Part shown: positions 8,790 through 12,066 of the stretch, one piece after another
How positions within the stretch are numbered: position 1 is the stretch's first letter
How the letters are laid out: each line of letters starts with the position of its first letter
Source: Chitinophagaceae bacterium
GTDB taxonomy: Bacteria > Bacteroidota > Bacteroidia > Chitinophagales > Chitinophagaceae
DNA: 64,000 nt
Reading direction: 5' to 3'
NCBI GenBank assembly: GCA_046262255.1
Contig: JBHENB010000005.1
Coordinates: 350 to 64,349 of the forward strand
Program-made: the position numbers and the translations under genes
Notes under the pieces: generated by a model
What the model was told of the DNA's origin: nothing
Database searches by the model: none
What the model saw: only the letters and a program-made list of their open reading frames with translations

Positions 8790-9371
8790 ATGACTTTATT
8801 ATCCCGGCTGACCGACCACGAATTGATTAATTCGTTTACTTCCGGCAATGTAAACGCTTTAGAGATCCTTATAATACGTCACAAGGACAAGTTGTACACC
8901 TCTATTCTTTTCCTTGTTAAAGACAAGTACCTTGCCGAAGATATTTTTCAGGATGCTTTTATAAGAATTATTGATACCATGCGCAGTGGCCGCTATACTG
9001 AAGAAGGTAAATTTTTACCGTGGGCCATGCGTATAGCACACAACCTCTGTGTGGATCATTTTCGTAAAGTAAAAAGAACACCAACTATAAAGACAGGCGA
9101 TGACCAGGATATTTTTGAAGTGCTGAATTTTACAGAAGACAGTGCAGAAGATAAAATGATAAAAAAGCAAAGTCATAACCGCATTCGCGACATGCTGGAT
9201 AAATTACCGGAAGACCAGCGTGAAGTAATTATACTGCGCCATTATGCAGATATGAGTTTTAAACAAATTGCTGAGGTTACAAATTGCAGCATTAACACTG
9301 CGCTGGGTCGTATGCGTTATGGATTGATTAACCTTCGTAAGATGATGGTACAAAAACAAATAGTTCTTTAG
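8790..9371 (+). CDS. ECF sigma-70 factor (RpoE-like)
   Basis: Region 2 (AEDIFQDAF, FLPWAMRIAHNLCVDHFRK) and region 4 (LPEDQREVIILRHY, SINTALGRMRY). Confidence 0.93.
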   Translation: MTLLSRLTDHELINSFTSGNVNALEILIIRHKDKLYTSILFLVKDKYLAEDIFQDAFIRIIDTMRSGRYTEEGKFLPWAMRIAHNLCVDHFRKVKRTPTIKTGDDQDIFEVLNFTEDSAEDKMIKKQSHNRIRDMLDKLPEDQREVIILRHYADMSFKQIAEVTNCSINTALGRMRYGLINLRKMMVQKQIVL

Positions 9372-9433
9372 AAGTTACAAGACACAAGCGACAAGACACA
9401 ACGTATTTCTTATTACCTTGTTTCTTGGAACTT
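9372..9433. repeat. Inverted heptamer array forming a hairpin (possible terminator)
   Basis: AAGTTAC-AAGACAC-AAGCGAC-AAGACAC, then an inverted arm whose reverse complement is AAGTTCC-AAGAAAC-AAGGTAATAAG. Confidence 0.65.
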
Positions 9434-9447
9434 TTCCTTAACATATT

Positions 9448-9621
9448 GTCATTCCTAATCTCCATCCAAAATTTTTGCTTGCCGTGGAAGGTTGGTTAGG
9501 AATGGCGCCTAATTAAATTCCCGAACCCTGAGCTTGACGAAGGAGTCGGAGATTTTTTAGGTACCAGCATTGAAATTCTATTTTGCATCTGTTGCAAGTT
9601 TATCCTGAGCATGTCGAAGGA
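9448..9621. repeat. Cluster of REP-like palindromes
   Basis: Inverted repeat GTCATTCCTAA (9448-9458) / TTAGGAATGGC (9496-9506). Direct pair CCTGAGCTTGACGAAGG (9527-9543) and CCTGAGCATGTCGAAGG (9604-9620), 15/17 identical. Confidence 0.7.
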
Positions 9622-9732
9622 CTCATTTTATCGTTCGGTAATTCTATTAAACTTTAATACTTACATTTATTTTGTTAAGTTAAGCTTACTACATCAGCAA
9701 ATAATTTACAGATAAAAATTTTCACATCTTTT

Positions 9733-10164
9733 ATGAATACTGAACCATTATCCGCATATCATTTTATTGTTGACTGGGGAGGTGCCAATGGCGCTTTCTC
9801 AGAAATTTCCGGACTTAGCATAGAAAATGAAGTAATTGAATATAGAAATGGTAATTCAACAACACAGCAGGCTACAAAAATGCCCGGCCTGCGCAAATAC
9901 AGCAATATTACCCTTAAACGGGGTTTAACAAAGGGTGATACAGATTTTTACAAGTGGCTTAATACAGTTAATCTTAATAAGGTGGAAAAAAGAAATGTTA
10001 CTATTAGTTTGTTGAATGAAAACCATGAACCTGTTCGTGTATGGAAAGTAAGAAATGCATGGCCGTGTAAAATTTCCGGACCTCACTTAAAAGCAGACGG
10101 AAATGAAGTGGCTATTGAAACAATAGAATTAGCACACGAGGGGTTAGAAATTGAAGATGTTTGA
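9733..10164 (+). CDS. T4 gp19-like tail tube protein (Afp1/Afp5-type, contractile injection system)
   Basis: FSEISGL, EVIEYRNG, KMPGLRKYSNITLKRG, WKVRNAWP.KISGP and GNEVAIETIELAHEG are tube-protein signatures. Confidence 0.92.
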   Translation: MNTEPLSAYHFIVDWGGANGAFSEISGLSIENEVIEYRNGNSTTQQATKMPGLRKYSNITLKRGLTKGDTDFYKWLNTVNLNKVEKRNVTISLLNENHEPVRVWKVRNAWPCKISGPHLKADGNEVAIETIELAHEGLEIEDV

Positions 10165-10232
10165 TTTATTAAGACATATTTAGTTAGGATTCATATCTCT
10201 TAAGCATTTTTTAATATCCAGATTAAAAATCT

Positions 10233-10778
10233 CTAAAAAAGTCCCGGATTATCGTAACGCAGTTCGCTATTTATTACCCGTGCAACGGAAGTAAACGGAT
10301 GTACATGAGCTTTTTCGGCATCAATAATGTGCAACACTTTCCAGCCTTTTAACTTAAGATAATCTGAAACCAATGCTCTATGACACCGCCACCATACTGC
10401 TTCAGAACACATATATGCAGTTGGTTGTTGCCCGGCAATTATTTGTAAATTGTTTATTGCACTGGCAAAATCATTCGTTTACATATAATCTGCATAACCT
10501 CTAAAAGCATCATTCCGCCACCGTGTATTAACAAGAGCCAGCAAACGGCTTTCTTCTGCCACCAAGATCTTTTAAATGTATATAATTAATATGCTGTTCC
10601 TGCAAAGAAAATTGAAGTGATTCTTTATTAAAATGGGGATAACGTTTTGAGCCTGGAAAACTTCGGATATCCGCAACCATCCTGATGTTAAAAGAATTAA
10701 GAATAGCAATAAATTCATTTAGAGAACGTGTAGAATGCCCATGGTCCATATTACTTTTTCTCCTTGTTCATCTATCAT
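10233..10778 (-). pseudogene. DUF488-family protein, disrupted
   Basis: Reconstructs as MIDEQGEKVIWT[I]GHSTRS...LGGRRKP...NTRWRNDAFRGYADYM*...MCSEAVWWRCHRALVSDYL...GLF. Frameshifts near 10741 and 10530; in-frame TAA at 10479-10481. Confidence 0.85.
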
Positions 10779-10811
10779 GAATCAATTTACAAAATGCTTC
10801 TGAATAGCCCT

Positions 10812-11240
10812 CTACTTAATGAGCAGGTTATGAAACTTTCTTAATTCAGCTATTTCTGCTGCTGAAAGAATTTCATTGTTATCGTATTTCATTTTAAAAA
10901 ACAACACTCTCTTATGCTGCGGATAGTTAGCAAGTACATCTGCTATCAGTTGCCCGGTTTGGTTGTCTTTTGAGTATAGAGGTGTATTTCGGGGCAAAGC
11001 TGATTTAAATCGCGTTGGCCGTTTCAGAATTTCGGCTTCGAGAGTGGCAAGTTTGGCAGCAGGTAATGTTTTTACTTTAGCGGCCTTATGATATAAGCCT
11101 TGGAGTTGTTTTTTGCTTAAACCACCACGCTCCTGGTACTGATGCAGTAAGCTTTGAACAAAAGTGGATGCCGGATAGGCTGCCAGTGTTGTTTCCAGTA
11201 CATCTTTAATAACATCTACATCTGGCTTCTTCCTTTGCAT
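10812..11240 (-). CDS. Hypothetical protein
   Basis: 142-aa ORF with an internal repeat-like pattern (FVQSLLHQYQERGGLSKKQLQGL / FFKMKYDNNEILSAAEIAEL). Confidence 0.7.
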   Translation of the reverse strand: MQRKKPDVDVIKDVLETTLAAYPASTFVQSLLHQYQERGGLSKKQLQGLYHKAAKVKTLPAAKLATLEAEILKRPTRFKSALPRNTPLYSKDNQTGQLIADVLANYPQHKRVLFFKMKYDNNEILSAAEIAELRKFHNLLIK

Positions 11241-11315: not shown

Positions 11316-11672
11316 TCAAATAAATTTAGAAGAACTGATTTTACTGTAAAGCAGTCTGCCGACTCTGTCAATGTGATCTAACAGGTCTTTATTATTGATT
11401 GTATGGTAATTCAACACATCAAAAAAATATGGCATTTGTGTTTCTTCATTCAGCAAATAGCTAATGTGTCTGACAATATTAAAATTCAATGCGTCCCCTT
11501 TAACTGCAATATCAACATCACTTCCATTTTCGTAAATATTTTTTGCACGGCTGCCAAAAATGTAAGCTTCCTCCACTTCAGGATGTTGTGAAAGAATAGT
11601 GATTATATCCTTAATGTCACCTCCTTTTAAACCAAAAAAAAAGTGGTTTTTATTTTTGTCTGAAGGTGTCAT
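11316..11672 (-). CDS. Minimal nucleotidyltransferase (MNT, MntA/HI0073-like antitoxin)
   Basis: IFGSRAK...SDVDIAV (GS-x-DxD) motif; overlaps the upstream HEPN gene by 23 nt. Confidence 0.9.
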   Translation of the reverse strand: MTPSDKNKNHFFFGLKGGDIKDIITILSQHPEVEEAYIFGSRAKNIYENGSDVDIAVKGDALNFNIVRHISYLLNEETQMPYFFDVLNYHTINNKDLLDHIDRVGRLLYSKISSSKFI

Positions 11673-12066
11673 ATAATTCCTTTAAAAGGGGAAAATACTT
11701 ATCAGCAATAAACTGATGAACCTTGTTCACTGTTGCTTCATCATATGTGTGAGCAGTGATATTTCGATCATCAATCAGTTGCATCCAGCTATGGCCGTTT
11801 TGTATCAGGCCGATTTCAAACCCTTTCTTTAATGCACTCCTAGGTGATCTTATATCCGTAAATGCCTGGTCTTGCAGGTAATCTTTTATCAGATTCCCTC
11901 CAAGTTCAAAGCATATTTCGAAAAACTGAATCAGGCCTGCTTTCTGAATGATATCAGGGTTTTTAATTTCAACGGCTTCCTGAAGGTAGGACAATGCACT
12001 TACGAAATTCTGAAATCGTTGCTTCCACCGTATATCCTTACTTTTCGATATTTTAAATAATATCAA
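11650..12066 (-). CDS. HEPN protein, HI0074 family (nucleotidyltransferase substrate-binding protein / toxin)
   Basis: DIRWKQRF, GLIQFFEICFEL, SPRSALK and RNITAH (Rx4H) motifs. Start uncertain (TTG). Confidence 0.88.
   Translation of the reverse strand: MILFKISKSKDIRWKQRFQNFVSALSYLQEAVEIKNPDIIQKAGLIQFFEICFELGGNLIKDYLQDQAFTDIRSPRSALKKGFEIGLIQNGHSWMQLIDDRNITAHTYDEATVNKVHQFIADKYFPLLKELYDTFRQK

Follow-up and report, generated by a model that had tools for sequence, protein, structure and literature searches.

The tube gene described here is probably a paralogue of eCIS inner-tube genes that has been put to new use: it stands by itself, and selection appears to have retained it for a job performed without sheath, baseplate or spike. 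It lies within a window of 64,000 nucleotides, by which we mean the whole stretch of DNA that was analysed, corresponding to positions 350-64349 of a 64,858-bp contig (C5) in the genome (G000) of a soil-type member of the Chitinophagaceae. The assembly comprises 2.57 Mb in 150 contigs, with an estimated completeness of 93.65%, and the genome is the smallest of its genus in our sample. The features of the window on which the argument draws are as follows.

8790..9371, + strand: ECF-type sigma factor gene, context (Sigma70_r2, Sigma70_r4_2, Sigma70_ECF)
9372..9732, no strand: intergenic spacer 5' of the tube gene, 361 bp, with short repeats (repeat search)
9733..10164, + strand: tube gene, stand-alone Cis1/Alg1-type inner tube (PF06841, solved tubes, AF2, tree)
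10233..10749, - strand: DUF488 pseudogene in two pieces, context (Pfam)

The tube gene and its surroundings

The gene at 9733-10164 (+) is an intact ORF of 143 residues that begins with ATG and ends with TGA. In a profile search its product matches the Phage_T4_gp19 family, PF06841, with an E-value of 2.4e-49 and 167 bits (cut-off 28.2), over positions 2-134 of the 134 in the model, and it matches TIGR02241 with 146.9 bits (cut-off 62.4); the equivalog cut-offs of the NCBIfam models CIS1_fam (40.1 bits against 220) and CIS5_fam (90.3 bits against 260) are not reached. Among solved structures the closest tubes are Alg1 of AlgoCIS from Algoriphagus machipongonensis (7ADZ, PMC8894135) and All3324 of the thylakoid-anchored CIS of Anabaena (7B5H, PMC8894136), each matched with 195 bits at ~60% identity; Pvc1 and Afp1 come next, with 96-100 bits and 37-38% identity. 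An AlphaFold (AF2) model of the protein has a pLDDT of 87.8, and Foldseek aligns it to the tube chains of 7B5H and 7ADZ with TM scores of 0.84-0.86 and a probability of 1.00. Profiles, solved tubes and predicted fold all agree with the original prediction of an intact gp19/Afp1-like tube ORF, and on the evidence of sequence and model the product is a Cis1/Alg1-type inner-tube protein, predicted to have the β-barrel fold of Hcp/gp19-like tubes.

The resemblance to Alg1 and All3324 extends beyond identity and fold to a short N-terminus. The genes for these two proteins, in contrast, sit in operons together with those for sheath, tube adaptor, spike, baseplate, cap and ATPase, whereas the window gene is alone, and the window protein differs from the Alg1/All3324 type in having the lineage-specific residues Y9, S29, C112 and S115. 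Pvc1 of the Photorhabdus PVC and Afp1 of the Serratia Afp (6J0B, 6RAO, 9QGL) have family and fold in common with the window protein (TM ~0.8), but are more distant, are embedded in operons, and carry an N-terminal arm that is longer by about eight residues.

On the contig the tube gene occupies C5:10082-10510 and is the only copy in the genome. It is found ~10 kb from the contig end among housekeeping genes, with uvrA and a DsbD-like gene as flanks, so that an assembly break between it and a complete eCIS locus, one of the ways in which the original prediction might have failed, is not the explanation for its isolation and was rejected. Upstream, uvrA lies on the reverse strand beside the ECF sigma factor gene. 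The link between sigma factor and tube is kept at no related locus when the neighbours of 18 lone-tube loci are compared. In the spacer that separates the two genes, a 21-nt sequence is found at 9527-9547 and again, in direct orientation, at 9604-9624; positions 9372-9399 hold a 14-nt tandem repeat. The core of the 21-nt repeat, CCTGAGCnTGnCGAAGGA, occurs just four times in the whole genome, so that 'REP-like cluster', the name originally given, was a generous label; the ECF sigma gene and the DUF488 pseudogene, named with them as neighbours, are both present.

No Rfam match was obtained for 9300-10900. A scan of the spacer for sigma-70-type promoters gave hits that were not above chance and no terminator was found in it; the Bacteroidota-type -33/-7 promoter pattern is matched nowhere in the whole window, and its absence from this spacer therefore carries no information. 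At 9427-9450 (+), 56 bp 3' of the ECF sigma gene and ~280 bp 5' of the tube start, the sequence fits GGAAC-N16-GTC, which is ECF-promoter-like as a pattern match only.

Downstream of the tube gene, the DUF488 pseudogene is made up of one ORF at 10528-10749, matching model positions 2-58, and another at 10233-10412, matching positions 103-121. An intact DUF488 gene (L112:2566-3078) is found two genes upstream of a lone tube on an Ignavibacteriaceae contig; this is the one other locus at which the two occur near each other, and the proximity is probably coincidence. Beyond the DUF488 pieces come a 142-residue ORF with no family match and, at 11316-12066 (-), an overlapping pair that encodes a Polbeta-type nucleotidyltransferase (117 residues) and an NTase_sub_bind/HepT-like protein (137 residues). 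This pair is a toxin-antitoxin module of the MNT-HEPN type, and the DsbD-like gene comes next. The GC content is slightly lower around the tube gene (0.33-0.36) than in the flanks (0.38-0.41), and the sequence shows no sharp edge of an island. As regards the phage-assembly decoy, another of the readings first put forward, PADLOC models of defence systems match neither the tube, nor a neighbour, nor the sheath described below.

The rest of the machine in the genome

That no other tail gene is present in the 64-kb window, as had been predicted, is borne out by tblastn searches with every ORF of two complete eCIS loci from a congener (G003) and of partial loci from G029 and G013, in which contig C5 is matched solely at the tube. 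The same queries match only one further gene in the whole genome, which encodes a sheath and is located on a different contig:

G000:C2:82774-84195 (L005:10772-12196), - strand: lone full-length sheath gene (sheath model, tblastn, All3325)

No sheath gene adjoins the tube in the window, and the gene on C2 is the only one in the genome. Neither the gp25-like model (PF04965) nor the Baseplate_J model (PF04865) has a match in the assembly. The VgrG, PAAR, gp25, BPJ and LysM proteins of the relatives have no tblastn match there, nor do their cap-like (DUF4255-type) ORFs, and the eCIS AAA+ ATPase finds only a generic AAA gene on contig C20, at 25% identity. Pfam models for gp25, Baseplate_J, sheath and tube, combined with tblastn of the relatives' loci, thus revealed no complete contractile system elsewhere in the genome, and a hidden eCIS locus was rejected. 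The proposed search for the missing parts has therefore had a divided outcome: baseplate and spike genes are absent genome-wide, whereas a sheath gene, albeit unlinked, is not.

Could the gene nevertheless supply a spare or specialised tube subunit to a complete system whose genes lie at another site in the genome or on an unbinned element? The analogy would be with orphan Hcp proteins, which serve complete type VI secretion systems (T6SS) encoded at a distance. Like the lone tubes, orphan or 'evolved' Hcp proteins are encoded away from the main cluster and sometimes bear added segments; an orphan Hcp, however, serves a complete T6SS in the same genome, whereas the genome of the window tube has no contractile machine, and Hcp belongs to a different sequence family, only about 10-13% identical to the window protein. 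With 150 contigs and 93.65% completeness, ~6% of the genome is unseen, and eCIS loci do occur in 25-30% of Chitinophagaceae genomes. Against this, homologues of gp25, Baseplate_J, VgrG, PAAR, cap and ATPase are all absent, and relatives whose genomes are complete or 99-100% complete have a lone tube without other CIS genes; four such relatives, at 99-100% completeness, have no match to sheath, gp25 or Baseplate_J. Within 6-10 kb of the 27 tubes of the main clade described below, no eCIS core gene was found. A role analogous to that of orphan Hcp is accordingly very improbable, and the earlier suggestion, an alternative tube that acts in trans on a distant locus, finds no such locus in this 93.65%-complete assembly.

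A recurrent lineage of solitary tubes

Solitary tube genes recur. A scan of our genome collection gave 80 related tube loci, 67 of which are canonical operons with the order cap-like, sheath, tube, tube adaptor, LysM, VgrG, PAAR, gp25, baseplate; the other 13 are lone, having no other core gene within 10 kb of the tube, and 10 of these 13 are from Chitinophagaceae or Chitinophagales. A tube is present in 99 of 300 Chitinophagaceae genomes surveyed at a completeness of at least 90%, and ~22 genomes (~7%) have exactly one. All 17 of the single-tube loci that were retrieved lack any eCIS gene within 6 kb. A sheath model match is missing from 14 of the 22 single-tube genomes, and five have an unlinked lone sheath that has no eCIS neighbours. 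The remaining three comprise one whose tube lies beside its sheath on a short contig and therefore counts as operon-type instead of lone, one with a sheath fragment (G014) and one with a weak sub-threshold match (G114).

The lone tubes span at least eight genera of the family. In five genomes from several genera, the tube directly follows the phosphofructokinase and pyruvate kinase genes, pfkA and pyk (L127 in G161, L131 in G262, L128 in G167, L133 in G267, and L110 in a Chitinophagaceae MAG), implying vertical inheritance at a housekeeping locus. An all-against-all comparison of the neighbours at 18 lone loci uncovered no conserved partner gene. Outside the main clade, two lone tubes from Cytophagales and Ignavibacteriaceae (L111:9577-9999 and L112:3090-3527) are each preceded by a common ORF of 140-145 residues that has no Pfam match; the 142-residue ORF of the window shows no similarity to it.

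The tube phylogeny called for by the original prediction places the window tube with other lone tubes. In a tree of 87 tubes, the window tube and 15 other lone tubes form a single bipartition that contains no operon tube (SH-aLRT 96), and in a tree of 104 tubes the main lone group comprises 27 rows, the window tube included (SH-aLRT 92); within it, the sister of the window tube is that of 'Chitinophagales bacterium 65-1' (support 91). Three further small lone lineages are located elsewhere in the larger tree, indicating that the lone state arose more than once. In both trees the lone tubes have longer end branches than the operon tubes. Four residues are characteristic of the lone tubes (n=27) when compared with eCIS tubes (n=69): Y9 (24 against 1), S29 (10 against 1), C112 (12 against 0) and S115 (9 against 0). 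The window tube has all four; at these positions the two operon tubes from its genus carry F, T, V/I and E. An AU test did not reject a topology in which it is joined to those two tubes (p 0.47, with only 143 columns), and its probable membership of the lone clade thus rests on branch support and the four common residues, not on a decisive topology test.

The most telling feature of the clade is an N-terminal helix. An in-frame extension of 11-44 residues, initiated by its own ATG, precedes the tube sequence in 22 of the 26 main-clade relatives of the window tube, whereas it is missing from all 69 operon tubes and from the eight other lone tubes; public gene calls include it in the protein. 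In the cultured Ginsengibacter hankyongi BR5-29, a carrier of the clade, the extension (locus L108) reads MIFFKRLIRKI. Seventeen of the extensions are cationic amphipathic helices, with hydrophobic moments of 0.34-0.85 and net charges of +2 to +6. The other five are transmembrane-like, with a mean Kyte-Doolittle hydropathy of 2.5-3.0 in four of them and 1.4 in L132; these lack the N-terminal charge and have a lysine after the hydrophobic stretch. In the AF2 model of one helix-bearing member (pLDDT 91.7), residues 2-19 are predicted to be helical, with the tube fold after them. The codons of the extension, in the two closest pairs, give dN values of 0.00-0.02 against dS values of 0.20-0.22.

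The window tube does not have this helix. An in-frame TAA at 9676-9678, 18 codons upstream, is followed by no start codon before the ATG, and an extension is thus impossible. Its nearest kin, L044, P0002, P0003 and P0005 (65-79% identical, 141-144 residues), are also without it. In the 104-tube tree the helix-less pair is nested, with weak support, among helix-bearing members, which suggests that the helix was lost secondarily in the window tube and its closest kin. The 11 in-frame codons that precede the tube start, at 9700-9732 (+), contain no start codon and read NNLQIKIFTSF, which faintly resembles the short helix MNLFERLIKKI of the relative L054; these codons could be a relic of the lost helix.

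Selection, the unlinked sheath and a possible role

Does selection still act on these proteins? Five close pairs of lone tubes give dN/dS values of 0.031-0.10, compared with 0.048-0.075 for eCIS pairs of similar divergence. Invariance of at least 95% across the 69 operon tubes is seen in 42 columns; the window tube retains the invariant residue in 38 of them, and its four changes (Y4E, F9Y, V25I and R86K) are mostly conservative. With L044, the nearest relative compared at the DNA level (65% identical), dS is saturated, so that selection on the window's own branch is seen only at the protein level, over the path that joins it to P0002. This protein and P0003, both of 143 residues and found in a large protein database, are closer relatives, at 79% and 77% identity. 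Only two of the 31 differences between the window tube and P0002 fall within the 40 conserved (low-entropy) columns (Fisher p 0.0027). None of the five substitutions assignable to the window branch falls in a conserved column; three of them (I>L, I>L, I>V) are conservative. At the level of its sequence the window tube shows no sign of decay.

These results bear directly on the possibility that the gene is a slowly decaying relic, either what remains of a lost eCIS operon or a dead, helix-less member of the clade in which a disabling mutation is yet to come. The missing helix would fit such a relic, as would the adjoining DUF488 pseudogene and toxin-antitoxin pair, the slightly AT-richer stretch in which they lie, and the small size of the genome; the AU test is compatible with a close tie to the operon tubes of the genus, and the end branches of the lone tubes are, as noted above, the longer ones. 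The reading frame is nevertheless intact, however, with its invariant residues largely preserved, and a frame of 143 codons would not remain open by chance over a saturated dS. The differences from P0002 avoid the conserved columns, and the low dN/dS of the clade contradicts both the relaxed selection that a relic should display and the earlier proposal of a remnant. Several helix-less relatives are intact as well, implying that the helix-less form has persisted through much divergence. We consider a relic unlikely. Nonetheless, with the most telling feature of its clade absent, a pseudogene next to it and a reduced genome around it, the window copy itself could be on its way out.

The lone sheath gene on contig C2 raises a different question. 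Its product is full length and conserved like operon sheaths, with 470 bits to Anabaena All3325 over residues 2-474, compared with 457 bits for the operon sheath of a relative. The gene directly follows tRNA-Lys(ttt) and lies between plsX plus an unmatched ORF of 275 residues on one side and a cupin gene on the other, with no other CIS gene nearby. In the complete genome of a congener, G014, a remnant of ~93 residues from the C-terminus of a sheath (L041:8563-8841; G014:C1:2480562-2480840) is 55% identical to residues 379-471 of the G000 protein and is found at the syntenic DUF3810-yceD-plsX locus. A sheath at this site is thus ancestral and has decayed in one lineage, which keeps its tube. 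Elsewhere in the same genome, gp25-like and weak sheath-like matches 5 kb apart (L146; G014:C1:3161000-3178000) probably represent a Bacteroidota-type T6SS that is unrelated to the lone tube.

It might be supposed that the lone tube and the unlinked sheath form a minimal pair, building a contractile or tubular assembly that has no baseplate. Beyond the good preservation of the G000 sheath, lone tube and unlinked lone sheath are found together in five other genomes (G286, G124, G265, G105 and G226), somewhat more than the ~1.4 that a rough calculation assuming independent occurrence would predict, and lone sheaths recur in other Chitinophagaceae, with one pair giving a dN/dS of 0.146. The co-occurrence may, however, merely reflect common descent from one lost locus. 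The 14 single-tube genomes without a sheath, together with about 10 of the 300 genomes that have a sheath without a tube, imply that neither gene needs the other, and the decay of the sheath in G014 has left the tube in place. Lone sheaths also lie on very long branches (0.84-1.56, compared with a median of 0.14). Known sheaths, moreover, polymerise on a tube initiated by a baseplate, and G000 has no baseplate initiator. Taken together, these observations make a functional sheath-tube pair distinctly improbable.

We return, then, to a tube that works by itself. According to this preferred reading, the tube would have been cut loose from an injection machine and then kept by selection. Since the lone protein has kept the invariant residues found in tubes that assemble, it would be expected still to form hexameric rings like those of Hcp. 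In most members of the clade, the cationic amphipathic helices, and the charge pattern of the transmembrane variants, suggest that six N-terminal helices could tether such a ring to the cytoplasmic face of the inner membrane. The N-terminus of a tube subunit is located on the distal, cap-facing surface of the ring (PMC12546770); a helix at this position would hinder stacking and tip the balance from long tubes towards single rings. The window form, having lost the helix, may instead be a soluble ring or short tube that is free to stack. How such a ring might be used is a matter on which we can offer only a tentative and rather doubtful model: an autonomous module, tethered by its helices to the inner membrane in most members and soluble here, that could act as a pore, gate or exclusion device without contractile apparatus, perhaps accompanied in some genomes, G000 included, by an autonomous sheath. 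Of the four readings first put forward for this gene, a 'domesticated free hexamer' comes closest. The gene probably belongs to a stand-alone group that is conserved and under selection, and the hexamer itself is predicted from sequence.

To our knowledge, the surveys published on contractile injection systems are confined to complete loci, with the result that parts occurring alone drop out of them and are regarded as debris. Our search of the literature for orphan, solitary or domesticated eCIS tube genes found nothing relevant, and the stand-alone tube clade of the Chitinophagaceae is undescribed. It comprises a lineage of solitary tubes that spans many genera, experiences selection as in working tubes, usually carries a membrane-type helix, and resides in genomes that lack the machine. 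If our reading is correct, this would be a clear example of how a structural protein of phage tails can be recruited to a role in the cell, and would provide a simple one-gene system in which to ask what a tube ring does on its own. The annotation 'phage tail protein' in these genomes, finally, does not imply the presence of a prophage or an injection system.
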